Assembly (NCBI GenBank): GCA_977862235.1
Contig: OZ374561.1
Span: 1,178,001-1,242,000, forward strand
Direction: 5' to 3'
From: Dudresnaya verticillata
Lineage: Eukaryota
DNA: 64,000 nucleotides
Part shown: piece after piece, positions 2,480 to 59,780 of the stretch
Layout of the letters: every line of letters starts with the position of its first letter
How positions within the stretch are numbered: position 1 is the first letter of the stretch
Program-made: the position numbers and the translations under genes
Notes under the pieces: generated by a model
Told to the model about the DNA's origin: nothing
Database searches by the model: none
The model's input: the letters and a program-made list of their open reading frames with translations, nothing else

Positions 2480-2497
2480 TTCTAGGTGGGGAGACCA
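2480..2497 (-). promoter_or_regulatory. Primer-binding site TGGTCTCCCCACCTAGAA
   Basis: Begins TGG 1 nt after the LTR end; one mismatch to the PBS at 16393 and 57701. Confidence 0.8.
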
Positions 2498-2498
2498 A

Positions 2499-37622: not shown

Positions 37623-39501
37623 TTAAAAGTTTGCCAAGTGGTCTTGGACAAACTTTTCCAGCATGGCTTGAAAGCGCACGTTGCCTGGGTTGTTATCAAC
37701 AAGCCGTTGAAGCGTGGCTATTCGTGTTTTTACCTTTCGTTCCTCGGCTTCTGCCTTTTGCATTTCCAAGCGTTGTTGTTCAATCTCGCCCTGACGCTTC
37801 GATGCACTTTGGACCACGTCTACAAATCCATCAACACCCGAGAGGTGCTCTTCAAAGTTCGCGCGCTTTGAACGCCCGCTCGCCGCCCCTGACTTTGGCT
37901 TCGAATCCCATGCGATCGCATGAGGTTCCGCTTCGTCAAAGCAGAGCTGCTCTGCGGCACTGTAATCTCTTTTCTGCCCTACAATCACACCCTTCGGAGC
38001 ATGCTGTTCACCGCCATTTGGACTCCCTTTGTCGTCCTTTGAGTCGCTATTCGCACTAGTGAGTCCCGCCACAATTTTTGCTTCTTGTTCATCACAAGAG
38101 ACGTCTCTAGACGTCGCCGCTTCGTCAACATCGTAGGTACTGACCCTCTTCGGAGTCAGCTCCGCAGCAGCAGCGCTGTTGGCTGTACCACCATGCATAG
38201 GGTTACATTCTTCTCCACAGGTATTGTCTGGAGGTCGCACTTTCGAAGTGCATTTGAGATGCTCTGAGTTAGACTCCCAACGTAACGCAGATGATCCAAC
38301 CCCGATGGCGCCCTGAGAGCATTTGTAGCTCCCCATCTCTCCAAAAACAAAATTCACATTCTCCATATATGTTTCATAAGCAGCCATGGACACATCTGTT
38401 GACTTGGTTGCTTGGCGGGCAATGGCAACGCGCCGGCGACGAATCGTCTCCGGGTCTTTAACAGATGCAGAGGGAGACAACCCGCCTTTGTTCCATCTTG
38501 CAAGCTCCTTAGGGAGCTTCCGGAGAAATCGCTGCACTTTAACTAGAGCAGCAGGTGATGTGCCCAAAACTTGTTTGGCGTCAGGGTCACCTTGCAGCAC
38601 CATTCGGCTTATTTCACTGAACTTTAAACCTCAGCTCACTTCCATGTTGCAAGTTACCTCGCACGCGTTTGTCAATGACGAATCTAGTTAGACCAACAAG
38701 ATACATCTTTGTGCTCATCGAGTACGCATTGTTCTTCCGGCAGTAGGGCAGACTAGGCAGTGCCGGTAGACCAATTGGTCTTGCTCTGGAACCTCGGGCA
38801 ACCGTTGCTTCCATTTGCGCAACATTACTTGTCTCTTGCTCTAATGGCGGAGATGAAACGAGCTTTGTTTTTCCTGAGTGATCCTCGGATAGCTTCGTGG
38901 TTGTGGTCTCTTTTACAGCAGCAATATGACGCGGACCATCCTGTGTCGGGCATGCCTCATTGTACTTACTGACAAAACTTCTGTTCAGTCCCTGTGGTTC
39001 CTCTTGTTCAACAACACTAGCCGACTGAATATAATCGTGTCCTACATTTGGTAGGTCTCGAATACCATCATCATCGACTAAGTCAATCAGTCCCTCCTGC
39101 TCCCGCAACTCTTCAGCTTGTTCACCGCGCACTTCCTGTGCCATTGGTGCCACAAAATGCATGGCTGTTGATCCCTGTGTCGGAGTCAGGGTCAGGACCT
39201 CGACGTCCCGGTGACCGTCTGGGATTTGGGCTGGTGGGGAGCACCTTGTCCTTTTCACCTCCTTTTTCTTTGTTCCTCTTCCTGCAGCCTCAACTGTCTT
39301 TGCGGCTTCCAGACCTCCCATTCGCTGATTCCCATCGGCTCTACCGTTGGTTTCCCGAAGCCCGCCTGAACAAAAGGGAGAGCTCGAAATTGGCGTGGTA
39401 CGTGTTTCTCGCAGCGCTCCTGCACGCGGTGTTGACAGTTTTCGCCTGGAAGGTTTTGACTGTCGCTTCGTTCTGCGTGGCGGGTTCCGTTTAGGGGCCA
39501 T
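37623..39501 (-). pseudogene. Probable Harbinger second ORF (DNA-binding partner), broken near 38610-38690
   Basis: Convergent with the transposase, as for two-gene PIF/Harbinger elements; basic N-terminus, C-terminal coiled coil (EIEQQRLEMQKAEAEERKVK). No clear Myb/SANT Trp pattern seen. Confidence 0.55.
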
Positions 39502-40213: not shown

Positions 40214-43080
40214 TGTTGAGGACATGGTCGCTGGCGCCTCACGTCACGGCTCAGGTACCCCAGATGGTACCCTGGCACGCTTTCACCAAACCTTCCGGAG
40301 ACGACAGCCCTTTTTCCGGGCTTCCAAAATCACGGCGCATTTAGGCCTTTTGCAAAAGCAACGTGAAACGGGCTTCTGATTGGTTGTTACAAACCGCCTC
40401 CATGGTCTATATGGCTTACAAGTGTTGTGCTGGAATTGGCGGTTATAACAGGAACGGCCAAGTGGAGCGATCTGATTGGACCACATGGATGCACGTGGTA
40501 TGGCATGGAATGGTACTGGTATGACGCACACTGTACTCCACAAGTACATATGAACGTGCCATGCAATGTGCTGATGGCGTCTGAGTTGGTACTGCAGGGA
40601 CTTGCGCTACGTGGAGCCTGGCTTGTGATATCAGCAGATGCAGTTGTCGTGCGGCTGACACGTTGGTTTACAGTTGGCACGTGGCTGTCGCGCGGCCGAC
40701 ACGTTGGCTTACAGTGGGCACGTAGCTTTCGTGCGGCCGACACGTTGGTTTACAGCTGCCACGTAGGCAAATCTGAGTGATTACGTGGTCAATGATCCAA
40801 GTTGGATATTCATGGACGGACTTCAGCTCGTAAGTGCGGCCACGTGGTGTGCAGTGTTGTCCGACAGCAGCCATGCGGGGACACTCGATACTTTCGAGTT
40901 CCCGCCCTAAGTTGGAGTACATATGGATGGCAGGAAATGCGGTCGCAAGAGGGATTGCTGATGTCAGTAGTTAGCAACACTGGTGTGCAAGTTCCCGCCC
41001 ATTTTGGTGGTGGATGTGAGTGTGCTGAGAGTATGATTTGGTAGCTTTGATGGCTTTACTTTTTCCCGCCCATTTGATGATAGGTATTTTGGGCGTATCT
41101 TTAATGATTTGTTTTGTTTGTGTTCACGCAGCGACTCATCCGAAAAGCTGATATAAGCCTTGTCGGATGGTCGACTGCAGTAAACGAAGTCAAGCGACTT
41201 CCATTTCTCATCTTGTTCAACTCCAACCTCTCCATAATCCTTTTCAGGTTACGGGCCCAGAAGGTCGACCTACGCAGACTTCATCGCTTCGCTGCAACCT
41301 TCTTCCTTTTTCTTTTCATTCTTGATACTGTCCGGTCCCGTCCTGGCCTTTCCTGTCTGCTTGTGTCCTGTCCTGTCGGCTTGTGTCCTGTCCTGTCTGC
41401 TTGTTGTCTGTTGAAAGTGGTCCCTATCCCACTGTGTCGGCTTGCGTCTCTGATTTTGTGAGAGTTCTCGAGGCTCTCGTCCGCTGTTGTCTTGGTCCGT
41501 GAGCTTGCTGAGAGGTTGAGTGTTGTGCGTGGTGACTCTCGTTAAGTCAGGACCTCGTTGGCCTAGGGGCGCAGCCTCCAGTAAGATCCAGAACCTTGAG
41601 ACGGTTGGGCCTAGTTCCATTCCTGCAAGAGACTGGACCTGTTCGTGTGGTGAACACTCGTTTTGACTTAGTACCCATAAGGTGGACGTCTCGTAAGGAT
41701 TGCATACTTCGTGTCTGTGTGCGCACGACACGAAAGGGCTGCTGAAAGACGCATTTCACCCGGAGAATCATATCCGGGGGCCAGGAGTCCGACTCCTAGG
41801 GGTGACTAGGTAGAACCTGGTGCCAGAACATCCCGCGTCAAAAAGACGTTCAAATATCAAGAATCAACTTTTCAACTTCAAGTTTCAACTTTTCTTCTTC
41901 AGTCCAGGTGATCCCATCATCACCTGAGAGTTTCATTACTCCAAGCGTGGGAGCTGCTTGGCAAAGTGTGCTCCGCTTGTGACTGTATTATATTACCGAC
42001 GTGTTCGACACATTTCTCAGTTTCGTCGTCACGTCTTCGTTGTGTGAGCTGCACTGCTCTGCTTAGCACGACTATTACCCTCTGGGCATCGACACTGTTG
42101 CACTCAAAGCACTGCCCCAAGTTCACCAAGTTTTCTAAAACTATTCAAGTTATCTCTTCTCACCATCAGTTCCAACAGCTATGACTAATACCGAAGCCGA
42201 GATGGATACTTCGAGCGGGGTCAAGATACCCCGTTTCCACGGCAGGAGAGGTGACGACTACGGTCTCTGGCGCCATCGCCTTCGTGCCGCATGCCGCATC
42301 AAAGGGGTTTGGAATGTTGTCCACACCTCAAACGACACACCGAGCAGCTCACAGTCAACTGGAGAGGCCTCAGCGGATACTTCCATTCTTCACGCCAGAA
42401 CCTTGGCCAAACGTGAGAAGGCTTGCGGGATCATCATCTCCGCACTTGGTGATGCTCCGCTTCGTGTCGTTATGGAGGTCGATGATGACCCCAAACGCAT
42501 GCTGGAGCTATTGGACTCGTGCTATGCGTTCAGTCGAACCGTATCCCGTATCGCCGTACAGACCAAGCTATTCCGTATGACGTACACCGGTCAGAATATG
42601 TCCAACTATGTCGACCAGTACACGTCACTGTTCGCCCAACGCGACCGCATGGGCAACGAATCGGCGATACCGGAGACACATAAGGCCCCTATGCTGCTTG
42701 CTTCCATTGATCCGTCCTGCCACCTGGAGTCAACAGCTGCAGCTCTTCGCACCAAAGATGCTGCTGAGCTGACTTGGGACTACGTCGCAACCACGCTGAT
42801 CGATGAGTACAACGCCAAAGATTGTCATGGATCAAACGCAGGTGGGAGATCCAGTAAGTCGAAGAGTCGTCGGAAGAAGAAAAAGAAGTCCGCGTCGTCA
42901 GGTTCTCGCCAGCAACACAACACGCTGGATGACAACGACGACTCCGATGACTCTTCTGATATTGAATCCACCTTCCGTGCGTTGGCGGTTGCACTCAAGT
43001 CCGCCAAGCAGGCTCACTCCACCCCGAACCGGAACCTTCACTGTGATGTTTGCGACAAGGATGGACACACCGCGGATCGC
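40214..43080 (+). mobile_element. Ty1/copia 5' part: LTR 40214-41246 (3 units), PBS, leader, truncated gag
   Basis: LTR followed directly by GGTTACGGGCCCAG; gag from 42181. Confidence 0.92.
41247..41260 (+). promoter_or_regulatory. Copia-type PBS complementary to an internal region of tRNA-iMet
   Basis: GGTTACGGGCCCAG; the inverted copy (43881-43894) reads GGTTATGGGCCCAG, matching the Drosophila copia half-tRNA PBS as I recall it. Confidence 0.85.
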
Positions 43081-43221
43081 AGAGCAGTGCAGCTCACACA
43101 ACGAAGACGTGACGACGAAACTGAGAAATGTGTCGAACACGTCGGTAATATAATACAGTCACAAGCGGAGCACACTTTGCCAAGTAGCTCCCACGCTTGG
43201 AGTAATGAAACTCTCAGGTGA
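42181..43221 (+). CDS. gag: Copia Gag (UBN2-type) truncated in the zinc knuckle, with a chimeric C-terminus
   Basis: KIPRFHG...DYGLWRHRLRAACRIKGVWNVV; CDVCDKDGHTADR breaks at 43080 and reads into the inverted leader. Confidence 0.88.
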   Translation: MTNTEAEMDTSSGVKIPRFHGRRGDDYGLWRHRLRAACRIKGVWNVVHTSNDTPSSSQSTGEASADTSILHARTLAKREKACGIIISALGDAPLRVVMEVDDDPKRMLELLDSCYAFSRTVSRIAVQTKLFRMTYTGQNMSNYVDQYTSLFAQRDRMGNESAIPETHKAPMLLASIDPSCHLESTAAALRTKDAAELTWDYVATTLIDEYNAKDCHGSNAGGRSSKSKSRRKKKKKSASSGSRQQHNTLDDNDDSDDSSDIESTFRALAVALKSAKQAHSTPNRNLHCDVCDKDGHTADRRAVQLTQRRRDDETEKCVEHVGNIIQSQAEHTLPSSSHAWSNETLR

Positions 43222-44969
43222 TGATGGGATCACCTGGACTGAAGAAGAAAAGTTGAAACTTGAAGTTGAAAAGTTGATTCTTGATAGTTGAACGTCTTTT
43301 TGACGCGGGATGTTCTGGCACCAGGTTCTACCTAGTCACCCCTAGGAGTCGGACTCCTGGCCCCCGGATATGATTCTCCGGGTGAAATGCGTCTTTCAGC
43401 AGCCCTTTCGTGTCGTGCGCACACAGACATGAAGTAAGGAATCCTTACGAGACGTCCACCTTATGGGTACTAACTCAAAACGAGTGTTCACCACACGAAC
43501 AGGTCCAGTCTCTTGCAGGAATGGAACTAGGCCCAACCGTGTCAAGGTTCTGGATCTTACTGGAGGCTGCTCCCCTAGGCCAACGAGGTCCTGACTTAAC
43601 GAGAGTCACCACGCACAACACTCAACCTCTCAGCAAGCTCATGGACCAAGACAACAGCGGACGAGAGCCTCGAGAACTCTCACAAAATCAGAGACGCAAG
43701 CCGACACAGTGGGATAGGGACCACTTTCAACAGACAACAAGCAGACAGGACAGGACACAAGCCGACAGGACAGGACACAAGCAGACAGGACAGGCCAGGA
43801 CGGGACAGGACAGTATCAAGAATGAAAAGAAAAAGGAAGAAGGTTGCAGCGAAGCGATGAAGTCTGCGTAGGTCGACCTTCTGGGCCCATAACCTGAAAA
43901 GGATTATGGAGAGGTTGGAGTTGAACAAGATGAGAAATGGAAGTCGCTTGACTTCGTTTACTGCAGTCGACCATCCGACAAGGCTTATATCAGCTTTTCG
44001 GATGAGTCGCTGCGTGAACACAAACAAAACAAATCATTAAAGATACGCCCAAAATCCCTATCATCAAATGGGCGGGAAAAAGTAAAGCCATCAAATCTAC
44101 CAAATCATACTCTCAGCACACTCACATCCACCACCAAAATGGGCGGGAACTTGCACACCAGTGTTGCTAACTGCTGACATCAGCAATCCCTCTTTGCGAC
44201 CGTATTTCCTGCCATCCATATGTACTCCAACTTAGGGCGGGAACTCGAAAGTATCGAGTGTCCCCGCATGGCTGCTGTCGGACAATACTGCACACCACGT
44301 GGCCGCACTTACGAGCTGAAGTCCGTCCATGAATATCCAACTTGGATCATTGACCACGTAATCACTCAGATTTGCCTACGTGGCAGCTGTAAACCAACGT
44401 GTCGGCCGCACGACAGCTACGTGCCCACTGTAAACCAACGTGTCGGCCGCACGACAGCTACGTGCCGACTGTAAGCCAACGTGTCGGCCGCTCGACAGCT
44501 ACGTGGCAACTGTAAACCGACGTGTCGGCCGCACGACAACTGCATCTGCTGATATCACAAGCCAGGCTCCACGTAGCGCAAGTCCCTGCAGTACCAACTC
44601 AGACGCCATCAGCACGTTGCATGGCACGTTCATATGTACTTGTGGAGTACAGTGCGCGTCATACCAGTACCATTCCATGCCATACCACGTGCATCCATGT
44701 GGTCCAATCAGATCGTTCCACTTGGCCGTTCCTGTTATAACCGCCAATTCCAGCACAACACTTGTAAGCCATATAGACCATGGAGGCGGTTTGTAACAAC
44801 CAATCAGAAGCCCGTTTCACGTTGCTTTTGCAAAAGGCCTAAATGCGCCGTGATTTTGGAAGCCCGGAAAAAGGGCTGTCGTCTCCAGAAGGTTTGGTGA
44901 AAGCGTGCCAGGGTACCATCTGGGGTACCTGAGCCGTGACGTGAGGCGCCAGCGACCATGTCCTCAACA
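43081..44969 (-). mobile_element. Second copia 5' part in opposite orientation: LTR 43895-44969 (4 units), PBS 43881-43894, leader
   Basis: Reverse-complement match to 40214-42060 with scattered SNPs and one extra 41-bp unit. Confidence 0.92.
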
Positions 44970-45172
44970 GGCAAGTTGGTCCCTCACAGTCTCGCATTCG
45001 GCACACTTCACGAATCGGTGGGTTTTGCACACTTTGATCCTTGCGCAATGTGTAATCCAAACAGTGTAAAAGTAGTTCTGAGAGGGCGGCGTCTTTCCTC
45101 GGTACAATTTGGCAAGCTCACGTACAAATACGTCGTAGACCGCCTGCTTTTGAAAGAAGGGCAGATGAAACT

Positions 45173-45935
45173 TGTAGTATCTCTAAGGCACCACCGCGTA
45201 CGGCAGCCAAACGAGACCCCAAGAAGACCACAAAGACCTGACGGATTTCACCAAAAGCTGACCAGAACGTAGAAGAGACCTTCTCGCCAGTAGCAAGCGT
45301 GCTAGAGCGGGAGCACGCAGACGAAGTCGTGGCCAGAATCTGTGATGAGGACAGAAAATGGCCAAGTCGGGGGTTCAGTTGCTAACTTTACTCCCAAACT
45401 CTGGCGGGACGGCTTCGTACCTTTTTCGGCTAAGCCGTAGTATGTGGCCAGCTAAGTAGTCCCAAAAGCGGCCATCTGAGCTAATCTAGAGCTATTCTAC
45501 AGTTAGTGGCCGAGGTTACTCCTGTCGGCCATAATATCTACTTATGTTCCGGCGTCGGGCCAATGTAAGGCCCTTGCTAGATTAAACCAAGTACTTGTGC
45601 GTTAATGGTTGGCCCTGCGAGTTAGATATTCCCTTGATTTTTCCACTGTCTTCCCTTTGATTCACCGTGCGGCCAAATCCAATTTCAATTTGTGTCTGGC
45701 CGCGAATCGGATCATGCGTGTACAGCGGGCCACGTAGTGCGCTTCGGTGTCGTAGGTGGCCACGTGTGAGCCTGTGTACAATCGGTGGCCACGTTTCATA
45801 CTTGCGCGCGCTCACCGCCGTCCCCGCGCCGAGGTCACGACTTCATTGGCCAAGTGTCTTCGTTTGGTTGGGCCGATCGTACAGTTGGCCCGTCGAGTTG
45901 CTTCCTTTTGGTGGCCCCCTTGCCGTTGCACCACA
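45173..45935 (-). repeat. 3' LTR of family A element
   Basis: TGTGGTGCAACGG...GAGATACTACA; preceded on the sense strand by a purine tract. Confidence 0.9.
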
Positions 45936-46148
45936 GAGCCCCCTTCGCAAGCGCGGACTCCTGGCCGCGTGGGTGTCATCTGGCCATATCAGCGCGCGTG
46001 ATCCGCGCCGCTACCCCTCTCCCTGCACCCGGTCATCACCATCTTGTTCACACCGACCGTATTCCCTTACCAACAATTGCCAACAACATCGTGCGGACGT
46101 CCTTACTTCGCTTTCCAACTTGCGCGCGCCTGGCCATCTCCTTTCACC

Positions 46149-49100
46149 ATGGCAGGTGGTCCAGAGAAAACAAGCCCGCGACGCACTGTGTCGGCCAAGA
46201 AGAAGACTACACGGCCGCCTTAGTCATCCAGTTCGTCGTCCACACCGCCGTCGAGCGATGAAGAAGTTGTCGTGGCCAAAGTGAAGGCGATGCTGATGAA
46301 GTTTGGCCAGAGTTCGAGACCGCGCGCGATGAAGGCGCCCAGGGCGTCTTCTGCCCCAGCACCCAAGACCCCAAGTCGCGCATCTAACGATCCGCCGGTT
46401 GCTGCGAAGACCACAGCGGTGGAGAAGCCCATCAAGACTGGCCAGAAGAAGAGTGTCGCTGCGTCTGCAATTCCGGCCATGGTGCAAGCTACGCCCGACG
46501 TCGGCACCAAAAAGTTAATGCAGGAGATTGCGGCCAGTCAAAAGAGGCGCGAGGCTGAGGAGCAGCAACTGGCCAGCCTCAAGAAGAAGCTTGTCGATGC
46601 GCAGAAGGCCAAGTTGGCGCGCAGCGTGACCATTGTCGCATCATCCTCATCGGAGGAGGCAGCGGCGGCAACAGGCCAACTTGGAGGGGGCAAGCCGAAT
46701 GCATCTTCTTTCGTTGGCCCGTTAGCAAAGGAGACGCCGAAAGCTGACCAGAAGGTAGCAGAAGCGCCTGAGAAAGGGTTGGTGCAGGCCGAAGTCAAGC
46801 TCCTTAAGGCGAAGAAGTTGGTGCTGGTCGCAAGCACTATAGTGCCAACGGCCATTAATCCTACTCCACCGCCGTTGGCCACCGCTATTGAGAAGGCTGT
46901 AATTGCCATCTCACGTCCATTGGTTACTCAAGCTACCACTGCGGCTGCGGAAGAAGTAGCTGCGGCTCAACCCGAAGCTTCCGATTCGGCCATGGTATTC
47001 GTGCCCGCTCGAGAAGAACCACTGGCCAGTAAGGAAGAGTTGCTTGGAAGAGCTGAGAAGACTGGACCAGAGCCAAAGGAAGGAATAAGTCAGCGCAGAA
47101 GACTTCGGAAGCTTTGGCCAATATTCCCGTGCCGCGTAAGACGTCACGTTCAGCTACCCCGAGTGCTTCAAGAAAGTGTACCCCGCGGCTGCGCTCTGTC
47201 CCCTCGCCATTCATGCCGACAGCAGCGAGCCGGGCGCGTCAACTGGCCAAGCTAAATATTGGGAAGGCAGCAGTGCAAGGCCCCCTGCGAAGAAGCAGCG
47301 GTTGCCAAGCAAGGAAATCGGCCAGTCGTCTCGTGCAGAAGTTATCGATGTTGGTGCCTCTACACCTATTCCTCCGGCCAACCTTATGTCAGATGGCGAT
47401 CGGCGTCGATTTCTGGCTTTGCTTCCCGACGCCGATGAGCTTAAAGCTGGCCAGTCTTCTTCTACGCCTTCTGCGGGCGTGCTGCGCAAGGCATCTGGCC
47501 AGAATGAAGATCCTCGCATGAAGGAAGTTATTCCGCACGAAGAGACTTCGGATATCACCAAGGCTGGCCAGGAGATCCCAAGCTCAAGTGCTGGCCCCTC
47601 TGCTCCAACGCACCCGGACCGTGAACCAGCTTCGCACACTCGTGCTGCTGTGTATTTTCGTCCCGACCTCCCACCGGGCCTAGAAGATCAGGATGGCCCC
47701 GAATTGGTTTTGGACGAACGTTTGCCTGGGACTTCTAGCTGGCCAAAGTTACCTCGAGTAGATATACCTTATACCGAGTTGGTGGCCGATAGTGACAAGC
47801 TGGACATGATTCGCGTGCGGGAAAGCCACTGCCCTCTTAACGAGGCGTGGCACCAATATCGCCAGTCGCATGAAAATGGCCATCTCTATTGGATCCCTTC
47901 GGAGATCGAGTGCGACCGTGCTTTCTTGCCGTGCGCGCGGGATGTGATGTTCATCCACGGAGCATGGTTGATGTTCAAGGGTAAGTCCAGTGTATACCCT
48001 CACACTTCCACATGGGATTACGCCTTCCCTCACTCGTGGATGCTTGAGCGCTGGGAGCAGACGACCGTGCGAAATGCGAAAATGGCCAGTACGGACCTTC
48101 GTCGTATCGTAGCGCCGGGATAGTGGTTGGCCCATCGGACGGGTGGTAGCTATGTCTACCACGGCAACACTCGCGGCCAGGAAGGGTTTTGGCCCCCTCT
48201 CGAATACTTCCCTAGCGTTCCTGCTCTTCTTTGGAAGGAGTGGCCATCGAGAGGTGAAGCTTACCTACTTAGCCCTCTGGCCTATTATATTGTTGGCCAG
48301 TATCGTCGTCGCGCGCGCTCGACCCCACTTGGGTTGAGTGCTTCCAAGAAACCGCTGTCGTTGAGTTACACATAATGGCCAGCATCTTCTTTCGCTACGA
48401 AGCGCAGGCGTCAAAGAGGATGTGGTGGATGTCTTCTCAGGCCATTGCTCGACGAATTGAAGTGGTGAAAGACCTTACTTATCTCCCCGTCAGCCAGGAG
48501 CACCAGAATCAATTCAACCATGTGTATTGGCCAGATATTGTATCGTTGTATGAGAAGTTGGCCGATACAGTGTTGCACCGTGACCACTTGTTTCAACGCA
48601 GAGCTGGCCACTATGAGAAGTATGGCGGCTTCGACTGGAACAGGCAAGTGCCTTTTCGGCATGGTAGTAGCTTTGGCGTTGAAGTGGCCAATGATGCTTC
48701 CATCGTGCGGGCCAGCATCCTGCATCCTCATCCGCATGTGGTGGCCGAATTTTCCGTGCGCTGCCATGTTAACCAAATGTCTTTGGCCAACATCTTGCGG
48801 CAGCTGAACCAGAGCCTTGGCCGTCTCGGCGACACAAAGCGTGGCCAGACCGATGAATTCAACTGCCTTCGTCATCATGTTGATGAAGTTGAAGGAGTTA
48901 TCAGGCGGGGCGAAGAGCGGCTGGCCAATGTTAGGAGTCAGAAGGACCATATCGAGGCCGAGCTGCGAACCGCGAGGGAGTCACTGGCCAGGACCAATGA
49001 GTAAGGTCTCGAGTGGAAGAGGCAGCGCGACCGCTGGTGCGACGAAGCTCATAACCAACAGGCCTTACTTGACTTGGAGCGCAACCGTGGATTTCATCAG

Positions 49101-49546
49101 CTGGCCAGTTTGCGTGCAGCTTATGCACCGCCTGTCTTTGGCCAGATGCCTCAGTTTCCTCTGTCCTCCCTGCCAACGCCTGCGCCAGCTCCAACCATGC
49201 CGCAATATCCGGGGTCTCAGTGGCACCGGCCACAACCCCCACGCCGTCTCACGCTGGTGACGTCTCTGGCCATCCGCGCGCACCGTCTCGACCGGCCGAT
49301 TATCAGCCAGAGCCAACCCGTCCGGTGGTGTCTGCTCCGCCTACTCCTGTGGCCAATGCTGCTCAACCTGGCCATGTTCCTGGCAGTTTAGCTTTGCCGA
49401 TCACTTCGCCCTTCGTAACGCCGCCAACCGTTCCTGCGACGGCCCCACGTGCTCCTGCGACAGCGCCTCGCGCACCTTCACAGTCAAGGAGCAGAGAGCC
49501 CTATGCTTCGGGTTCTCCTCGCTTACCAAGTCCCTATGGCCCTTAG
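46149..49546 (+). pseudogene. Extra antisense ORF (~1100 aa if repaired) between pol and the 3' LTR
   Basis: ATG 46149 in frame with 46272-47255, then 47114/47176-48375, 48375-~49220 and 49220-49546, joined by frameshifts and stops; Lys/Ala/Ser-rich N-terminus, Trp/His-rich core, coiled coil, Pro-rich tail. Confidence 0.7.
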
Positions 49547-50458
49547 TTATCAAGGTATTGGATTAGTAGTTGGCCAGTTCGTCTTGTTATCTTATGCTGG
49601 CCAATGAGTTGTTGTTAGTCTTATGATTTCTTGTGTCTTGTGTTTGTGTTATTAAAAGATGGTGGCCAAGTTTGTGCTTCTAAGGTTGGACAGCCCCCCT
49701 TGTCTGTGAGGGTTACTTAGTCTGTCCGGCCAGTCTTGAGTTAAAATGCACTGGTTGTCTTCAAAAACGTTGTGTGTTATCGTGGCCAGTTACTAGTCAA
49801 ATGGGGCCGTATGGCCTCTGTTCGTCCGGGTCAGTCGGTCTTTCTTCTGGCCAATGCTCATGCGTACAGCTGGAAAAACGGGGTTAAGGGAGTTAGTAGC
49901 CAGGTCGAAGCGCAAAAATGGCCAGTGCGAGTGGTGAAGCGGCCTCGGCGTGGGGCTACCTTCTTCAAGACACCAAAGGAGGAGTAACGGCCAGCTATTG
50001 TCTTTGTTTCATCGACTTCAAGCACCCCATCTGGCCATGTTTTCTTCTCTGGGAAATTTCCTTCTTGTTGTCGGTAGGGGTTATCGTTGTCACCCCTGTC
50101 TCCTCACTCTGCGCAAGTCCCCGCTTGGGCGCACGACGCGTGGGAATTAGAGTTACCTGGAGGAGGCAGCAAAAGATGAGACAGTTTCTACCGTCCGTTT
50201 ACACCCGCTGAATCTCGGCGTACACCGGGAGATTTGCTGGCCGCAATTTTTCTCGCACAATGATTGGCCAGCTTACATTATTCTGGGTTAACCCTAAACA
50301 CCCCCGTCGTGTTTTGGTGAAGAGGTTCCAGCCGGGGTATTTTGTCGCCCAGCATCTCCTTCCTTCGTCCACGACCACTCCGCATCTCCATCTTCACAAG
50401 CTTTTGGCCAAACTCCGACTCCTCTCGCTTGACTTCCCTGGCCATGTCGAGGTTGACC

Positions 50459-53400
50459 TTACGAACTGTTTTGGCCCGGCGTAGCTCGGCGCTTCATGCG
50501 CGCGAAGAAGCGGGATACCAACGTGGCCGGCAGAAGAGCCTCGGGCTCCCAAGTTCGGCCATTATACCCATACCACTTGACCTGAAACCACCGCTGGCCA
50601 GTAGAATCCTCACGCATATCCGTGAGTTTGTGAATGACATATTCCTCGGCCGTCGCAGCAACTCCTTCTGGAAGGGTTCCCAAAGCGGCGCTGGCCATTG
50701 TCTCCGTAGCCATCGGTTGCCCTTGGGGCCTCGGCGCGGCTACTACTCTGTCCCAACTAACACGCTCCAGTTGGGCAGCCCTGTCTATGACGAACGTACG
50801 GCCATCATTGCCTATAATTTTGTATGGCCCCTGGGCATGATGCTCTAGTTTCTTTGGCTGCTTTTCTGGGTTGTCTAGGAAGACAAACCCCCCTGCGGCC
50901 AGCATCTTATTCCCCGTCCTGACCGAGCGGTCAAAGTCCTTCTTGTAGCGCGCCTGTGTGCGGGTTAAACTGACCGAAGCCTTGTCTACGGCCTCTGATA
51001 ATCGGCGTAAAAATGCCTCTTTCACCGTCCCAGTTGGTTTTGGCCGGTTTGACGTAGCTTCAGGTGAAAATGGGCTCGGGGCCGACTGAGAACCAAGTCA
51101 AACGGCGTGGTTCCAGTGGAGCGATGTATATGGCAATTATAAGCATACGTCAATGCCGCAGCGTACTCATCCCAGTCATTCTGATGTTCATTCACGTAGC
51201 TCCGCAGCATTGCGGCCAATGTTCGATTTTACCTTTCCACCTGGCCATTCGTTTGCGGATGATATGTCGTTGTGAAGATGTTGGCGACCTGTAATTGTCG
51301 GCAGACTGCTTGGAAGAACTTGGTCGCAAACTGTCCACCGTTATCGGTAAGAACTGTCTTTGGCGCGCCGTACTTGAAAATCCAGTGAACGCAAAACGCC
51401 GTGGCCACATTATGGGCGGTTATTTTCGTCAAAGGCACCACCTGAGTCAGCCTCGAGAAGCGGCATGTAATGACTAATATGTGCTCGAACCCCTTCTTAG
51501 TTCTGGGGAGTGGCCCAGGAAGATCCATGGCCACACTCTCTAATGGTTGACTGGCCGGAAAGAGCTGTAACTTCGACGTATGTCGGAGACGACGAATCCG
51601 GGTTTTGGCGCAATGGCCACAGTTTCGAACCGTTGCCAGGCAATCAGCGGCCATGTGCGGCCAATAGTATGTCCGTCGAAGAGTCCAATACATTCGATTC
51701 TGGCCAGGGTGACCTGCCAGGACGGCATGGTGACACAACCGAAGAATCCGGCCATATAACAAGGCCGGAAGCACTATTTGTTTCTGGCCATCGGTCGGAC
51801 ATCGTCTGTAGAGGACCCTATCGACTCCTTCGAAGAAGAGAGATTTCTTGGGCCGTCCCAGGCCAGCTCGCGTGGCGAGAATTGTCTGACAGAAGTCATC
51901 GCTTTTCTGGCCTTCTATTATTTCAGTCTGTTTCACTGGTGTTGGGAGAGTCTCTGCTGTCTTCCCTTCCATTTCTGCACGACTGAAGACATCCGCTCGG
52001 CCATAGTCCGTATACTCGGCCATTAAATGTTCCTCTTCCCATGCGTCGAATCCATCGTCTCGTTCTCTCCTGTCGGCCATATTAATTACTCGATTTCTCC
52101 TGGCCCGCGTGGTCGTGAGAATAGAGGGGTTACCGTCCAATACAGGTACAGTATCATCTATTGGCCGTGCATCTCCGCGCTCTGGCGGGGCCACCAAGCG
52201 GGACAAGGTATCGGGGACTTGGTTCTTGCGCCCCGGTTTATGCTCAGTCACAAAGTCGAACTCGGCCAAACGTAATCTCCATGTTGTAAGACGGCCAGAC
52301 GAATCAGTGAGCGACATCAACCAACAGAGGGCATCATGGTCCGTGCGTACTGTGAACTTCGTACCTTCAACATATGGCCGTAATGATGCAATGGCCCACA
52401 CCACAGAAAAACACTCGCGCTCAGTAGCCGAATAATTTTTCTCGGCCGACGTCAGGGAACGTGACCAATATCCCACGGGATGGTACGACTCGTCCTCTTG
52501 TTCTTGGAGCAGGACGCATCCAATCTGATATGCGCTGGCATCAGTTTCAATCACATATGGCCGTCCATATCGCGGTATGGCCAGAATAGGTGGCGAGACC
52601 AGAGCAGCCTTCAGTTTCTCGAAACTATGGCTTTGTTCCTCTGTTGGCCGTTCGAAGTCCGGCTCGGCGTCCTTGCACAACATGCGCGTAAGTGGCCGTG
52701 CGATCGTGGGGTATTTGGCCACAAACCTTCGGTAGACATTGCAAGCTCCCAAGAAGGACCGAAGTTCCGTAAGGGATCCTGGAAACTCGGTCTCTTGTAT
52801 TGCCTTGGTACCCTGCATGGCCATACGTAGTTTTCCGGGAGTCACTACATGACCCAGATAATCCACTTTGGCCTGAAAGAAGGAACACTTCTTCAACTTC
52901 AACGTAATGCCGGCCGCCTTCAACAAGGTTAGCACCTCGTCTAGATGGCCAAGATGGTCCTCCACACTTTTGGAGAACACGATGACATCGTCCAGATAGA
53001 TGAGGCATATATGCCATCGGACGCCAGAGAGAACTATGTCAAGCGCGCGCTGAAATGTGGCCGGTGCGTTCTTCAAGCCAAATGGCATTCGATTGTACCT
53101 GAATGTTCCCAGGTGAGAGGTGAAGGCCGTTTTATCCTTGTCCTCTTCGGCCACTGGGATTTGCCAATATCCGGAGTTGCAATCCAAGGTTGAAAACACG
53201 GCCGCATCCCCAAGGGAGTCTATACAATCATCCATGGGCGGGAGTGGATATGCGTCACCCATTGTCTTCGCATTGAGTCGGCGGTAGTCGACGCAGAAAC
53301 GAAGGGTGCCGTCCTTTTTCGGTACCAGCACAATTTGCGAGGCCCGTTCTCCGTGCGATGGCTCTATCACTCCGGCCTCCAACTGCTTCCTAATTTCGGC

Positions 53401-54540
53401 CTCTGCGATTGCGCGTAACGCTGGCCCCTGTCGGTAGGGCATCGCTCTTATTGGCCTGGTTCCATCTTCCAAGTCTATCCGATGTTCGGTGGCCATGATC
53501 GGTCCCAAGGAGCCGTCCCACATTGCACTGTGTTTCTCTATAATGGCCATTATCTTTTCGCGTTGTTTCTTGTCCGGGATATGATCAAGCTTGATCTTAT
53601 CCCGCCATTCTTCCGCCTCCTGTCTGGGTACCTTTGGTTCCGAAGGCTCACCTCTTTCTTGGCCAGATTCTTCTACTTCTACTTGACTACTATCCTGATC
53701 CACAAGTGGAGTAAGCCCAAATACACTGGCCATACTCTCCACATTCCGTCGGTGTGGCGTCAGGATTGCCATGGGGTGGCGGACAGCATAGCCGACCACG
53801 GTACCCTTTGGCAGTAAGACATCCTTTCTTCCCCAGTTGGCCAGCATTACCAGGAATGGTTTCTGCGGCCGAACTTCAGCAACTCCATTGGCCATCCGCG
53901 TATGGTGCCGGAAGATCAAAGAATGTTTGGGCTCCAACACGCATAATCCTCGGCCATCACTGCGAACAGACACGGTAGCCTGTTGACCTGCCCGTATGCT
54001 AAGACCTTTCGTCAAGCGTACAGTGGCTGCGTAGTGACGCGGGGTCTTGCGTTCCACACTGGGCGAATTGGAATTACCCGGAGGCGGGGCCCCCTCCGCA
54101 GCGGTTGGATCTGCCCCCAGAGCCATCGAGGTGCTGCCGGATAACAAAGGAAGGACGTCTCCGCGCACTAAGTGCACGGTCTGTCCACGGTACTGGATAC
54201 TATCCACGTGCGTGTTCAGAAATGCCGTACCCAACAAGACGGGTACGGCAAAGCGAAGGTCGGCGATAAGGAACGGCACTCGATATGAATGACGGCCTAA
54301 GCGCACGACCAAGCAAACGGCCCCTCGAAAATGAATTGGCCGTTGGTTGTCGCCCCCAGAAGAGGTGGGGACGTCAACGTAAGTGCGTTGTCCTTCCAAT
54401 TGGGAGGCAACGCATCCAACCGGATGATGTTCCACCCCAAGCATGTGTCTAATACAACTGGCCCGGGTAACAAGGCAGACATTGTGAGACTAAATGAGCC
54501 CGAAAGGGTATAGTTGGCCCCATCCAGGATGCAGACCATA
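50459..54540 (-). pseudogene. pol: Gypsy pol: protease, RT, RNase H, integrase, chromodomain (about three frameshifts)
   Basis: VVLDTC (degenerate DTG), LRFCVDYRRLN, MPFGLKNAPATFQ, YLDD, ETDAS, HHAVLAGHPG...CGHC, TDNG, YHPQTNGQVER, GPY, EEYVIHKL...FQVKWYGY...TWEP. Confidence 0.95.
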
Positions 54541-54996
54541 CCTTGTGATGAAACACTGGCCAGCTGGGAATCTTCTTTCTGTTCTTCGTTCAATGATTTG
54601 CGGCCACTCTTTGGAAAAGAACCCCCCTCCTTCGTGGTGGGGGTGGATGATGATGTAGTACGGCCAGACCTCCAGGGTGGTGACCACACCAGGCCGTTAG
54701 ATGAAAATGGGCAGTGGTAGGTCAAATCATAGGTTGACAAACCTTGATTGGCGTTGCCAAACGCCATGAAATGGCTAACAAGGAACAAAAATGGAGATGA
54801 CTAAAAGGAAACAACTTAACTGAAACGAGACTAGCCGGTTTTGGGACGTGGACGGGCAACGGGACGACGACCGAAGATCTCGGCCCGGCTAGTTTCCCGA
54901 TGCTAACGAAGAATTATCGGACTCCACATCGGCCACCACCTCATCCATTGGATGTTCTTGCGTAGCGACTAACGTGGCCTGCCGATTCCCACGGTT

Positions 54997-57225
54997 TTAA
55001 GATGATTGTTGCGGCCGTCGGAGTATTCCCTGAGGGGGAGGGCGTCCCCTTCCATCCCCAAAGAAGACATTCCGTTGTTCGGGGCGGTAGCCTCGACCTC
55101 GGCCGGCACACTGTTCGGGGTGCCATCTAGCGTACTCATCTCCGAAGCGGAAGTTCCGTATGGCAAACAAGTTCCTGATGGCCGTTGGTAAGTACGCACA
55201 AGTGTACAAATCATGGCCCCATTCGCGACAACCCCAACAACGGGCACTGGTTTTGTCACTGCGTAGCATAACAGCGACTTTGGCCAGCTCATCCGGCGTT
55301 AACGTCGGAGGTTTTCGGAGCGGGTCTGGGGTATTACCCCCGGACACCGACCCTGCTGGTGATGGTGTGGTCGGCGTCATTGTCGGTGTTTGCTGAGCAC
55401 CATTCTGGCCAGGGGTAATGGCCATAACCGGTATGGTGTCAAACGGATCATCATAGTTGGCCGCTATATCCTCGGGCCCCGCCTGCCAAGCAGGTTCGGC
55501 CGCAAGGGTAGGGATGACCAACGCGCTTCGAGAACTGGCCGACCTTGTTTTGGGACGTGCAGAAGCCAAGTAGGATCTGTGTGTCTCCCCCTCGGCGATG
55601 GCGATACGGCGCATCGTCGAGAAGTCCTTCTCCTCCGCCCGCATCTGCACAAGCTTCTCAGCTACAGCCGAACGAGTGGTCGAAGGTAAACCCCTCACAT
55701 AATGGTTGATCAGGGTATTTTCAGAGAAGACATCGGCGCACGACAGCGCCGCGTCACCTAACCGGTCATCGAATTCCGTTTCTGTCTCGGTATCTTTCTG
55801 TTTGCTTCTGGCCACTTTGTCGAACGCGACGGCCAGAACATCTTCGGTGCAGTAGCGCTTGATGAAAGCATGGACTAAGTGTGGCCAGCTGATTTGTAAA
55901 AATCCACTCATCGGAAAGATGGAGTGTACTGACCTTATACCACGGGACATCCGGCCAGAATAGAACCTCTTCGTATCACCGGCCGTAAAGAAGGCCAGAA
56001 GACGCAAAGCGGCCCCTTTATGGACGTTCATCCCATCACAGGCATCCTTGAACTCCTTGAGGAAGGACAGGAGCTCTATCGGACGTCGGCCATCAAATGG
56101 GTTCATCTGCGGGAACAAGCTCCGGCTTTGGCGAGTCATCCGGGACAAGCGCCGCGCATCCTCCATAGTCATCGTTGGCCGAGTATCCAGAAGGCGGTGG
56201 GTCCGGTAATCCACCACCCGCCGGAAGGGTTCCTGGAGGGCCTTGAGAGGCTCTAGACCTGGCTCCGTTGGCCCCATCATCGCGACAGGAAGACCTGTTT
56301 CATCCAACTGGCCAGTGTATCCCATGGAAGGTTCCCCTGCATCAACGGGCCCCGAAGGTCCAACTAACGCAGGCCGTGGGGCGGCGCCACTGTTCTGAGG
56401 GTTACCCTCTTGCGGTGGTACCCCTTCTCCAGGAATATTTGGCCGGGCCTTATCAGGATGCGACAAGGCCGTTATCTCATCTTGCAACTTGTCCAGTTTC
56501 TTCTGCACTGCTGCTACCGGTTCACCAACCTGTGGTGCCAAGACTGGTTGATTGGCCGGTGTCATCCGAGCGAACTCGGACCTTGTCTGGCTAGGGAGAG
56601 CAGGGAGTTTTACCTTCCCGTCGGAAGAGAAAACTGCCGTCTCAACCTTTTCCAGACGCTCATCATAACGTTCCGCTATGGCCGTAAGTGCACTGTCTAG
56701 AATGACGGAGTGCATCTCCTGGCGAAGCTGTTGGTCTCTAATTAGAGCCGTGGTGGACATCTTGACTTGCATCTCGCCAAACTGGTTCTTCACCTCTTGT
56801 TGCCACTCGGCCGTACGTCGCTTATACTGGTAGAACGCTTGCCGACCCAACCAGACGTCGTGTTCTGGCTGAGAATCATCATCAACCGGGGGTGGACGAG
56901 GATTAGCAGGAGCGGCCAGTGGAGTCATCGGCGGCGCTGTGGCCACCGGTGGCGTGCGAAACGGCGAAAACGGAGGGGCAGCCCGCGGCGGTACCTCATG
57001 ACGGACGGCACCTGCCATGGGAGAAGACCCTGCTCGTCCAACTGTCGAAGGAATGATCCGGCCAGTCGATAACGGGACCGGAGGGGCTGGTGGTGGCCCC
57101 GATAACGGTGGATATAGGCCAGGAGCAGGTGGTGGGCCTATAGGAGCGCCCAAAGTAGAAGGAGGCGGAGCTGAGCCTTGTAAGGGCTGCGGTTGTCCGC
57201 CTGCCGGTGAAGAACAAGAAGACAT
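54997..57225 (-). CDS. gag: Gypsy Gag (742 aa) with Pro-rich N-terminus and zinc knuckle
   Basis: FDGRRPIELLSFL, HYVRGLP, CWGCREWGHDLYTC; lies downstream of the PBS. Confidence 0.9.
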   Translation of the reverse strand: MSSCSSPAGGQPQPLQGSAPPPSTLGAPIGPPPAPGLYPPLSGPPPAPPVPLSTGRIIPSTVGRAGSSPMAGAVRHEVPPRAAPPFSPFRTPPVATAPPMTPLAAPANPRPPPVDDDSQPEHDVWLGRQAFYQYKRRTAEWQQEVKNQFGEMQVKMSTTALIRDQQLRQEMHSVILDSALTAIAERYDERLEKVETAVFSSDGKVKLPALPSQTRSEFARMTPANQPVLAPQVGEPVAAVQKKLDKLQDEITALSHPDKARPNIPGEGVPPQEGNPQNSGAAPRPALVGPSGPVDAGEPSMGYTGQLDETGLPVAMMGPTEPGLEPLKALQEPFRRVVDYRTHRLLDTRPTMTMEDARRLSRMTRQSRSLFPQMNPFDGRRPIELLSFLKEFKDACDGMNVHKGAALRLLAFFTAGDTKRFYSGRMSRGIRSVHSIFPMSGFLQISWPHLVHAFIKRYCTEDVLAVAFDKVARSKQKDTETETEFDDRLGDAALSCADVFSENTLINHYVRGLPSTTRSAVAEKLVQMRAEEKDFSTMRRIAIAEGETHRSYLASARPKTRSASSRSALVIPTLAAEPAWQAGPEDIAANYDDPFDTIPVMAITPGQNGAQQTPTMTPTTPSPAGSVSGGNTPDPLRKPPTLTPDELAKVAVMLRSDKTSARCWGCREWGHDLYTCAYLPTAIRNLFAIRNFRFGDEYARWHPEQCAGRGRGYRPEQRNVFFGDGRGRPPPQGILRRPQQSS

Positions 57226-57683
57226 GACGAAGTACGTCGGGGACTGATTGGTCAGATACTTCTAGCGATTCGTGGGCACCCCGTGGCCGACGTGTGCAAA
57301 GTGGCCTTCCTGGGAACTACACTGTCATGTGCAAAACACAGGGGTGGGAACGGACGATTCCGAGCTACTAGTCCCTATACCAAGGGCCGGACACTGCCGT
57401 GTGCAAAGCTCCCTGTGCTGGGAACGAACCAGCGAGTGTGCAAAGTGGCCAACCTAGGAACGAACCAAGCGACGGATATCTGGCCTGTGACCTAGACTGT
57501 GGCCACAGAACCGGGTTGAGGTAGACTGACAATCAGATTGCGAAACCGGGTAGTTAATAACCCGCAATCTGCAACTTGCGGGGTTTGGCCACCACAGTAG
57601 CGAGGAAGACACTGGCCGTCGTCGACTACGGCCAGCTACTCGAGTCTTCTAACGGAGAAATACGGCCGAAATCACAACTGATC

Positions 57684-57701
57684 TTCTAGGTCGGGAGACC
57701 A
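57684..57701 (-). promoter_or_regulatory. Primer-binding site TGGTCTCCCGACCTAGAA
   Basis: 1 nt after the 5' LTR end. Confidence 0.88.
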
Positions 57702-57702
57702 G

Positions 57703-58491
57703 TGTAGTATGTAGTATCTCTAAGGCACCACCGCGTACGGCAGCCAAACTAGACCCCAAGAAGACCCAAAAGACCTGTCGGATTTCGTAGAAACTGGCCA
57801 AACGTAGAACGGACCTGCGCGCCGGTAGCAAGCGTGGTAGAGCGGGAGCGCGCAGACGAAGTCGTGACCAAAATCTGCGATGAGGACAAAAAATGGCCAA
57901 GTAGGGGATTCAGTTGCTAATTTTACTCCCAACCTCTGACGGAACGGCTTCGTGCCTGTGTTGGCTGAGCCGAGGTGTGTGACCGTCTAAGTAGACCCAA
58001 AATCGGCCATCTGAGCTATCCTAAGGCTATTCTACAGTTAGTGGCCGAGGTTACTCACCATGGCCCAAAATATCTTCTCGAATCCTGGCTTCGGGCCGAT
58101 ATTAGAGCCCTACCGAATTAAATCGAGTACTTGTCAGTTGATCAGTGGTTGTAGCAGTTAGATTTCCCTTGATATTTTCGTGCTTGCTTCCTTGATATGG
58201 TATCGCGGCCAAATCCTTTTCCGTAATCCGATCCCGTTTCGATCCCGATAGGCCTATCCAGATTATCTCGGTCGTCCAGATATGATCATTTTTCTTTGCG
58301 CTGGCCACGTGGTTGACACGTGCACGCGTATGATCCACGTGTCATGTGTGTGGCTCCCTGCCGGTGCCCATCGCCGTCCGCGTGGCCGTACAGTAGTGAC
58401 TTCGGCCAAGTGTCTCCTATGAGTTGGCCAATTCGGGTGCGTGGCCCGGTCGACAGGCGTGTATTCGGAGGCCCCTTGCCGTTGCACCACA
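57703..58491 (-). repeat. 5' LTR of family A element
   Basis: Starts TGTGGTGCAACGG; terminal 7-mer duplicated (TGTAGTA twice on the plus strand). Confidence 0.9.
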
Positions 58492-59780
58492 GGATTGTTG
58501 TGGAGAGAGGAAAGCATGGAGGTTTGATCGACAAGCGGAATGAGAAAGAGAAGGAAGACCTTGCGGAAGAAGACGCCCAGCCAGTTCAACCGAAACCGTA
58601 AAAGTAAATCATAGCCCAAATCAGGCAATACAAAGGCGTGTCCGGATCAATAACAAAGCCCACTGAAATGATGGTATAGAAGAAGAGGAGGGCTCGGCAG
58701 TTGAGAAATGAATTATCCGCAGAAGCATAAAGCTAAAGAAGGATGAATGGTTCCTGCTTACCTTAGGTCCATTTGGGTCGTTTCTGGCAGGACCATTATT
58801 ACCATTAATGTCTGTACCCTTCATTCAAGTGCTCTTGGTAATGCTTACAAACAAAACTGATGATGCACTTCGAAACTCGCTCGTTGGCTTTGTGATCCTT
58901 ACCGTTTTGGCGTTCTTCGGAAATGCTCTTCGAAACGGTGCGTTGGGTGTTGCAGGTGAGCACTTGACAAAGAAGCTGCGCCAGATGGAATTCAGGAGCC
59001 TCCTCTGACCGGAAAGTGGTTTCTTGATAGGGAAGAAAACTCAATCGCGAGTTGGCTCCGCGGAGCAATGAAAGGACCATTTTCCGCAGAATACCGGGCT
59101 GTGAATGGCATAACGGGTGATTTGTTTGGCATTATGTTGAGTGTGGTGGGTGCCATTGCAACCAGTACAATCGTCGGCTTCGTCAGTTGTTGGAGGCGTT
59201 CCCTTGAAATGCTTGAAATTATACTTCGTGTGGGACTACGAGATAGTTTGAGATGCAAGCCGTTTCGGGAATAGAGTCTGGGTCTCGTATGGGGTTTGCC
59301 GAAGCAAACGAAATTGCCACTGAGGCAGTTGACAACGTCACAATGATACGGTACTTGTCTATTGAGAGGCAATTCGTGCGGCAGTATCAGGTCAAGTTTA
59401 GGGCCACAGTTGCGGCTAATCCAAAGAGGATTTCGTTGACTGGAGTGGCATATGGGTTTTCGGCGTTCCATCAGTTCATAATCTGGTATCCGACTTACAA
59501 AGCCGGAGATAACTTTGTTGCGCAGGAACACTACACTTCGCCAGATATGTTCCGCAAAACTCTCACTCTGATGTTCGCAGCCTTTACTTTACGCAATACT
59601 GTATGGCGGTGTTTGCGCCAGATCTTGGAGCGTGCAGGGTTGGTGCGACTCATGCTTATCGGCTAGTAGACAGTAGATAGATTGACCCAACAAGCTCTGA
59701 GAGTGAGATGCTAAACGAAGCTGAGGGGGAGTGTCAGCTGAGAAGGTTCGGCTTGAATACTCGCGATGACCAGACCTTCA
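58492..59780 (+). pseudogene. ABCB/MDR-type ABC transporter fragment (end of NBD1, linker, TMD2)
   Basis: IVVERGKHGGLIDK (NBD end), EWFLLTLGPFGSFLAG, GVAGEHLTKKLRQMEFRSLL, EANEIATEAVDNVTMIR, GVAYGFS; several stops and frameshifts. Confidence 0.85.

Follow-up and report, generated by a model that had tools for sequence, protein, structure and literature searches.

We analyzed a 64,000-nucleotide stretch of the Dudresnaya verticillata genome (GenBank assembly GCA_977862235.1, contig OZ374561.1, positions 1,178,001 to 1,242,000; hereafter the window, whose own numbering is used throughout). We found that a 13.3-kb Ty3/Gypsy long terminal repeat (LTR) retrotransposon on the minus strand (45173 to 58491) carries the short palindrome GGCC, preferentially as YGGCCR, along its entire length. 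The element holds 238 GGCC and 80 TGGCCA words, whereas 80 and 5 are expected from its own dinucleotides. This amounts to 17.9 GGCC per kb, or one per ~56 bp, compared with 3.5 per kb in the 49,924 bp of the window outside the element (176 GGCC and 17 TGGCCA). An earlier note, made from the sequence alone, had counted about 11 TGGCCA and about 20 GGCC in 48061 to 49000, and our recount gave 11 and 21. As that note had described, the sites are spread through the LTRs, gag, pol, and an antisense open reading frame (ORF), and each of the nine parts into which we divided the element carries 14.1 to 23.6 GGCC per kb. Density falls to 6.0 and 2.0 per kb in the 2-kb flanks and returns to 22.3 per kb (17 GGCC) in a solo LTR of the same family at 6434 to 7194 (minus strand), which is bordered by a 5-bp target-site duplication, AAGCG. 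The other families of the window, including two sister Gypsy elements, hold 2.7 to 5.3 GGCC per kb. The enrichment is thus confirmed as real, strong, and family-specific, and it is larger than first reported.

The preferred word is YGGCCR, and TGGCCA is its best form. With both strands combined, the base 5' of GGCC is T at a frequency of 0.57, C at 0.25, G at 0.11, and A at 0.08, and we found no base preference past this first flanking position. The words are balanced on the sense strand of the element (139 GGCCA versus 130 TGGCC). Other GC palindromes occur about as often as expected (GCGC, 66 versus 72; CGCG, 57 versus 66; CCGG, 64 versus 73), and the element has no general excess of palindromes. 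Sites are dispersed and not tandem, as had been claimed; there are zero tandem repeats in 45000 to 58600, which rules out a tandem origin.

Amino acid usage had been considered an unlikely cause of the enrichment, and comparison with shuffled sequences bears this out for gag and pol. Dicodon-preserving shuffles are uninformative here because each GGCC falls inside one dicodon; they were replaced with synonymous shuffles that keep amino acids and codon usage (1,000 per ORF). The gag-like ORF (54997 to 57225, minus strand) contains 37 GGCC versus 20.4 in shuffles (maximum, 31). In pol (50459 to 54800, minus strand), the long frame contains 57 versus 28.0 (maximum, 41) and the tail 13 versus 6.7 (maximum, 12). 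The third piece of the antisense ORF (46150 to 49549, plus strand) also exceeds its shuffles (16 versus 9.0; maximum, 14), and the first two pieces beat the shuffle maximum for TGGCCA-type counts only (8 versus 1.6 and 7 versus 2.1). Four control ORFs of the window stay inside their own shuffle ranges. Of the 112 positions in pol where a GGCC is synonymously possible, 57 are used, compared with fractions of 0.07 to 0.18 in 11 relatives whose GC content at third codon positions is 0.43 to 0.75. The non-coding gap that follows pol has the same site density as pol itself (17.6 per kb each). The tag also spills over into protein sequence: Met-Ala occurs 9.2 times per 1,000 residues in the element, whereas 94 relatives average 1.5 and reach 5.3 at most (120 matches minus 6 with animal or Closterium names and 20 with too short an aligned span).

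The spacing of the sites follows a distinct rule. Gaps between GGCC words are under-dispersed (coefficient of variation, 0.73 versus 0.91 ± 0.06), and only 8 pairs lie 4 to 15 bp apart where 48.9 are expected; 56 pairs lie 16 to 27 bp apart. This close-pair deficit is the most extreme among the 60 four-mers that have 100 or more sites. It is evident both for two strong sites (2 pairs versus 22.8) and for a strong and a weak one (3 versus 21.5), and it holds in coding DNA when sites are drawn from the synonymously possible positions (6 versus 27.9 ± 4.9; 0 of 2,000 draws as low). The background rate of the window would give 10 close pairs and 8 were seen, so second sites at close range are not favored, and there is no clear sign that they are purged. 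These data are described better by a step at 16 bp than by a logistic ramp (log-likelihood, -106.7 versus -109.3). A peak at 158 bp was set aside; it had no null and probably reflects a distance cutoff together with the short-range gap.

We tentatively interpret YGGCCR as a selected docking site, private to this family, for a protein that binds as a dimer, covers ~16 bp, is probably encoded by the element, and coats it against silencing, a reading that we judge to fall just short of probable. Selection would maintain the sites along the whole element, and a second site beneath an occupied footprint would be useless and hence would stay at the neutral rate. A homodimer on duplex DNA would be the simplest account of the reader because the signal is strand symmetric, its flanks are additive, its density is even, and the neutral zone extends to 16 bp. 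Restriction of the tag to one family would make an element-encoded reader likely. The coat would run end to end on the double-stranded DNA of the element, thereby marking the family's own DNA. Its purpose would most likely be anti-silencing of the integrated copy, as the analogy with VANC proteins of Arabidopsis VANDAL transposons and with nuclear products of other antisense ORFs suggests, or otherwise a coat on complementary DNA. In sister families, perfect self-complementary arms would serve the same role, read as hairpins or cruciforms. The earlier note had proposed an element-wide identity tag; the synonymous shuffles, family specificity, and footprint-like spacing support the tag itself, and the interpretation as a whole is partly supported. 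Of the options offered there for that function, DNA-binding sites fit best, RNA packaging or dimerization found no positive support in flank pairing or accessibility, and a methylation code is backed by a weak hint, described below.

Relatives of the element are tagged in other ways. We compared 78 reverse transcriptase (RT) loci (L numbers denote the RT loci or contigs of relatives; G numbers denote metagenome-assembled genomes [MAGs]), and the closest relatives come from contigs assigned to marine bacterial MAGs with the titles Algimonas, Moorena, and Planctomycetota. Twelve relatives at 56 to 70% identity have 0.9 to 6.0 GGCC per kb, with no excess, and no GGCC-rich close relative was found among the 78 RT loci, in three MAGs searched by pattern, or across one bacterial family (201 genomes). 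Instead, most of the 12 closest relatives, as well as the two sister elements in the window, are tiled with perfect interrupted palindromes. These arm-defined tags were surfaced by a gapped-word scan; word counts alone miss them.

In L013 to L016, palindromes of the form C-NNN-(4 nt)-N'N'N'-G occur throughout gag, pol, non-coding DNA, and antisense ORFs. Perfect copies number 57, 54, 49, and 36 against 4.1, 3.8, 4.7, and 2.2 expected, with center sets chosen from the data. Centers are family-specific (TC/GA/TA or GC), loops occur together with their reverse complements, and the arms of L013 and L014 are limited to 4 bp, the outer pair being a fixed C-G. Pairs closer than 20 bp are also scarce in these four loci, partly since the sites themselves are 12 bp long. 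The element clusters with L006 to L010 in the RT tree (support, 94/90), and in those loci stems of at least 7 bp number 24, 24, 58, 6, and 41 against 3.3, 3.7, 2.7, 1.3, and 3.7 expected. L011 has 27 versus 3.7 and the element itself 8 versus 7.3; the counts in L120 and L122, two distant Gypsy loci, are 4 versus 3.3 and 6 versus 2.3. In L012 and L117, signals of four-base arms are no more than weak. As separate observations, L006 to L011 and L116 (L009 was not counted in this way) carry 10 to 17 perfect stems of at least 6 bp per kb within coding DNA, CG or GC is frequent in the loops of L006 to L008, and folding z scores in L008 reach -7.

The two sister elements of the window use formats of their own. 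The first is a Gypsy fragment at 15966 to 18900 (plus strand; an LTR, the element's primer binding site [PBS], and a gag-like piece; 2.7 GGCC per kb), in which perfect 11-bp C-N3-(3 nt)-N3'-G palindromes number 35 versus 5.6 expected, mostly as CG-N2-(3 nt)-N2'-CG. A fifth pair forms in only 4 of 44 four-base stems with a 3-nt spacer in this fragment. The second, at 179 to 6400, comprises an LTR and two decayed gag-like stretches (4.5 GGCC per kb). Its LTR (179 to 621) is 83% identical to the LTR at 15966 to 16390, in inverted orientation, and palindromes with 4-bp arms and a 4-nt spacer are in about three-fold excess in 622 to 6400 (G..C, 34 versus 7.8; C..G, 24 versus 7.7). Because families within one genome differ in palindrome format, and the family that lacks arms has a fixed word, these data point to functional equivalence of the formats. 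More speculatively, and with less confidence than we place in the docking-site reading, this Gypsy clade may label its whole DNA with a family-private, format-interchangeable palindrome code, the formats being a fixed six-base word here, 4-bp arms of family geometry, or long perfect stems, and the readers being fast-evolving and element-encoded. If so, this would be a self/non-self system among retrotransposons, in which a reader coats its own family and ignores co-residents, and the code would bend even codon and amino acid choice in RT. The tiling itself offers a testable handle on the role of Gypsy antisense extra ORFs and on how families recognize or shield their own nucleic acid among co-residents, and the mutually exclusive formats within one genome make natural swap tests possible.

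A palindrome could also be read in RNA. The sites might be distributed stickers that join two co-packaged RNAs for dimer linkage, self-recognition, or packaging, with interrupted palindromes or kissing loops in the sister families and close pairs avoided as self-folding. Such a scheme would unite every tag type as a palindrome, and it accords with loop centers in the relatives that are closed under reverse complement (GC; TC/GA/TA). Between L013 and L014, moreover, double changes in the arms keep pairing in 15 cases and break it in 5, against a background of 107 versus 171 (both directions counted). In predicted minimum-energy folds, for which there was no control, 122 of 233 GGCC sites of the element pair with another GGCC, as palindromes would. 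Palindrome-driven homotypic RNA clustering has itself been put forward as an in silico hypothesis, according to the available text of that report (PMC13079385). The remaining evidence makes the sticker scheme unlikely in our view. The predicted unpaired probability of the sites does not stand out (0.031 versus 0.033 ± 0.004 in six context shuffles per strand, both strands), and RNA folding z scores are weak and not stronger on the sense strand (-0.40/-0.75 and -0.69/-0.85). Covariation between the flanks of GGCC is absent at all 8 offsets compared (98 versus 94.3), and hairpins around the sites were rejected, as there was no symmetric flank pairing at these offsets and the best z score among 169 asymmetric ones was 3.0. 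Perfect six-mers are not preferred over mixed flanks, and the counts of TGGCCA (80), GGGCCC (3), and AGGCCT (2) depart from the order of duplex strength. The 16-bp step also fits better than the smooth ramp predicted by loop entropy. Finally, the relatives do not tolerate G.U pairs on the sense strand as an RNA signal would. Variants with one G.U or one A.C mismatch number 30 and 32, pooled over L013 to L016, which shows no sense-strand preference for G.U. In the long stems of the other relatives, A.C mismatches outnumber G.U (168 versus 92), the opposite of what a selected sense-RNA structure would give, although a G-to-A bias could be an alternative cause.

The spacing and the stems also bear on whether the palindromes have a function at all. 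A lineage-tied mutation or repair bias might write them, as has been proposed for cyanobacterial HIP1, for which a methyl-directed repair model is described in the accessible text of one study (PMC4390886); RT fold-back copying would operate in the relatives and site-creating repair in the element. The strictly Watson-Crick, strand-symmetric stems of the relatives match the residue of template switching, and LTR sites on the R/U5 side (repeat and unique 5' regions) are not unusually conserved. Such a drive, however, should leave the sites Poisson-spaced and denser in non-coding DNA than in RT, and neither was observed. One-off neighbors of the GGCC core are not depleted (ratios, 0.7 to 2.1), the arms of L013 and L014 stop at 4 bp with their fixed outer C-G, and no methyltransferase domain was found by Pfam among the element's ORFs. 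We therefore regard functionless drive as very doubtful.

Conservation among LTRs was assessed with three LTR versions, compared as ordered pairs that are hence not independent. On the unique 3' (U3) side, 38 of 62 sites are kept, versus a fraction of 0.20 for other four-mers. In columns 598 to 653 of LTR alignment A1, all three LTRs keep one copy of TGGCCACGTG, in which the tag is joined to a G-box-like word; two of the three have it doubled on the U3 side. That U3 sites lie within conserved islands, several as TGGCCACGTG, would suit recruitment of a host factor along the whole element, whether a factor acting in transcription or on chromatin, or a methyltransferase of GGCC with its reader. 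Methylation of the inner C would turn GGCC into GACC, which accounts for 4 of ~5 single-base losses in the LTRs (small numbers), and YGACCR is raised in the element (32 versus 19 expected); non-CG methylation is reported for the red seaweed Gracilariopsis chorda in the text available to us (PMC8566409). YGTCCR, which methylation does not predict, is equally raised (36 versus 22), and families in the same window, the two sister Gypsy elements among them, are poor in GGCC and carry other palindromes. A host factor is accordingly quite unlikely to be the reader.

Several observations weigh against an element-encoded DNA-binding coat. The sample of the family is small, with one full copy and three LTRs. 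Sites on the R/U5 side of the LTRs are kept no better than background (24 of 36 versus 0.59), and conservation on the U3 side may be ordinary promoter function. Motif codons show no extra changes at conserved columns (6 of 62 versus 97 of 561). The lead of the step over the ramp is a modest 2.6 log units, between two models of different form. The earlier note had suggested checking the spacing for periodicity, and no helical or nucleosomal period emerged against a gap-shuffle null; helical phasing of GGCC is absent. A dimer on plain B-form DNA leaves the covarying arms of the sister families unexplained, and a folded form is needed there. Two distant loci from another host, L037 and L039 (2 of the 78), reach 18 to 20 GGCC per kb and a site use of 0.43 to 0.46, so GGCC richness alone is not unique to the element. 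We do not regard these two as its equals: they are 59 to 64% GC, exceed their shuffles only ~1.4-fold, and have close pairs at the expected numbers (24 versus 20 and 7 versus 6.6). A host-level bias is likelier in their case because depletion of GCGC and CGCG is common to most RT loci of those bins. As for the reader itself, our searches found neither a homologue nor a Pfam family for the antisense protein, and the tagged L016 has no antisense ORF of at least 250 amino acids in the 2.1 kb after pol.

On the docking-site reading, we infer that the antisense product is the first candidate reader. Gag or integrase come second and stay candidates because L016 is tagged and shows no such ORF in the sequence covered. 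The predicted antisense protein has a low-complexity N terminus with basic patches, an aromatic-rich middle, a coiled coil, and a proline-rich tail. This layout resembles that of L013, L014, L015, and L140, with sequence that aligns over the coiled coil only. One weak match to the protein covers 39 residues of its low-complexity part. An atlas match of 0.92 to a potyvirus coat protein was not trusted, given low recognition and 149 shared features, and structure models were unusable (predicted local distance difference test, 31 and 41). The antisense proteins of the relatives (L013, 7213 to 10233; L014, 6695 to 8119; L015, 10134 to 12692; and L140) are 800 to 1,000 amino acids long, share a core at 29 to 42% identity, and combine an aromatic-rich central domain with a coiled coil; they have no Pfam family or atlas match.

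The literature searched, whose coverage excluded most subscription papers, describes no retrotransposon tiled with palindromes along its whole length. Nor did it yield, for any retrotransposon, a second code that fills half of the synonymous positions open to it in pol and leaves a measurable footprint. A clade-wide palindrome code is apparently undescribed, and the element belongs to neither the VANC nor the HIP1 system. The packaging signals of single-stranded RNA viruses are a further point of comparison; they are many degenerate, strand-specific RNA stem-loops spread across coding sequence and read by a virus-encoded protein. The tags of the element are strand-symmetric and stemless, unlike these signals, and the small stem-loops of the sister families are similar to them but intolerant of G.U. 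The earlier note had drawn an analogy with VANC, which stands for family specificity and density and fails for location and origin. According to the available text on VANC and VANDAL in Arabidopsis (PMC5735166), a short motif private to one family likewise occurs there at high density, and density matters for the target motifs. The reader was shown there to be an accessory gene of the transposon; here this would be an inferred property. VANC motifs are described in the same text as 9-bp non-palindromes that lie in non-coding DNA of a DNA transposon in one orientation and are gained through tandem repeats, whereas the tag described here is an evenly spaced palindrome present in the LTRs as well as in gag and pol of an LTR retrotransposon, with no tandem repeats and a 16-bp exclusion.

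HIP1 and alternate HIPs, as far as the accessible portions of two reports describe them (PMC5861425, PMC4390886), are also short GC-rich palindromes enriched in coding and non-coding DNA; other palindromes substitute in some lineages, and selection versus repair drive is debated. HIPs differ in being genome-wide and bacterial, in having cognate methyltransferases, and in their periodicity at 10 to 90 kb, whereas the present tag is limited to one eukaryotic mobile family amid 49.9 kb of other window DNA at 3.5 per kb, with relatives that are arm-defined. Large antisense ORFs between pol and the 3' LTR with no database homologue are described for the Gypsy elements Grande, RIRE2, Retand, and Boty in the available text of PMC7264820. 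That text gives these plant and fungal ORFs no known function, describes some of their products as nuclear, and links no element-wide motif to them. We found no similarity between these ORFs and that of the element, although no dedicated search was made. Palindrome-driven RNA clustering, in the available text of PMC13079385, similarly relies on many short palindromes per RNA for self-recognition but needs accessible, strongly binding ones; the sites of the element are by prediction no more accessible than controls, and their choice of flanks does not track binding strength.

The element has the anatomy of a Ty3/Gypsy retrotransposon, with TG...CA LTRs, a PBS, a polypurine tract, and the domain order RT, RNase H, integrase. 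From its 5' end on the minus strand, it comprises the 5' LTR (57710 to 58491; 14 GGCC), a PBS-like 16-mer (57686 to 57701) in common with the sister element (16393 to 16408) and five G001 contigs, the gag-like ORF, pol, the antisense ORF, a polypurine tract (45936 to 45946), and the adjoining 3' LTR (45173 to 45935; 18 GGCC). The gag-like ORF is open, has a CCHC knuckle read from the translation, and is 27 to 32% identical to ORF1 of relatives; it has no Pfam match. In pol, whose 5' limit is approximate, a protease-like 5' piece precedes RT, RNase H, integrase, and a chromodomain-like tail (Pfam RVT_1, 389 to 548; RT_RNaseH, 642 to 744; Integrase_H2C2, 909 to 964; rve, 981 to 1078). Its reading frame shifts near 54350 and again near 51070, and a stop interrupts it at 51229. 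Much of what had been called a spacer beside the long pol frame is instead the frameshifted 5' end of pol (tblastn matches, 54536 to 54243). About 0.9 kb of non-coding DNA separates pol from the antisense ORF, which itself has several stops and frameshifts. The label "chromovirus" leans on a weak chromodomain match (Pfam Chromo, E = 1.3e-4 and 22.2 bits, below the cutoff of 25.1), and the RT tree held no named reference elements, so the label should be read as a tentative assignment from sequence; eight PDB chromodomains match the integrase tail (best E = 3.4e-5), and PF00385 is present in many relatives. The full copy has no target-site duplication (AAACT and GGATT at its ends), and its LTRs are only ~82% alike over the alignable part, with strong divergence in U3. 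It is for these reasons probably a recombinant of two subfamilies.

Some further observations concern the genomes compared. The GTDB bacterial MAGs G001 (L006 to L010 and L013 to L017), G002, G003, G204, and G205 contain many eukaryotic retrotransposon contigs, and matches to Gypsy pol occur in at least 19 G001 contigs. In the distant Gypsy loci L037, L043, and L050, from another host, dispersed ACGT/CACGTG words are two- to ten-fold over expectation and GCGC is depleted; no close-pair deficit for ACGT was found in L037 and L050. An excess of TGACGTCA in L005 proved to be a tandem array, and L157 proved unrelated. Five loci in G003, a cyanobacterial MAG (L109 and L112 to L115), contain intergenic tandem repeats rich in TGGCCA/GGCC that are unrelated to the retrotransposon.

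Elsewhere in the window, a second repeat family, containing tandem units of 41 and 20 bp, occurs at 13671 to 14663, 19982 to 21096, 40214 to 42062, and 43079 to 44969; its copies at 40 to 45 kb form a 96 to 99% inverted repeat flanking a copia-type gag (42139 to 43221). The region from 22664 to 30962 (plus strand) contains long ORFs of 568, 666, 225, and 290 amino acids with no Pfam family, has even-spaced palindromes in mild excess, and is possibly a decayed large transposon. A DDE_Tnp_4 (Harbinger-like) transposase at 35866 to 37482 (plus strand) faces an ORF at 37623 to 38630 (minus strand), which is the usual two-gene layout. A fragment of an ABC transporter membrane domain (59247 to 59663; Pfam E = 4e-4, below cutoff) adjoins the 5' LTR of the element.

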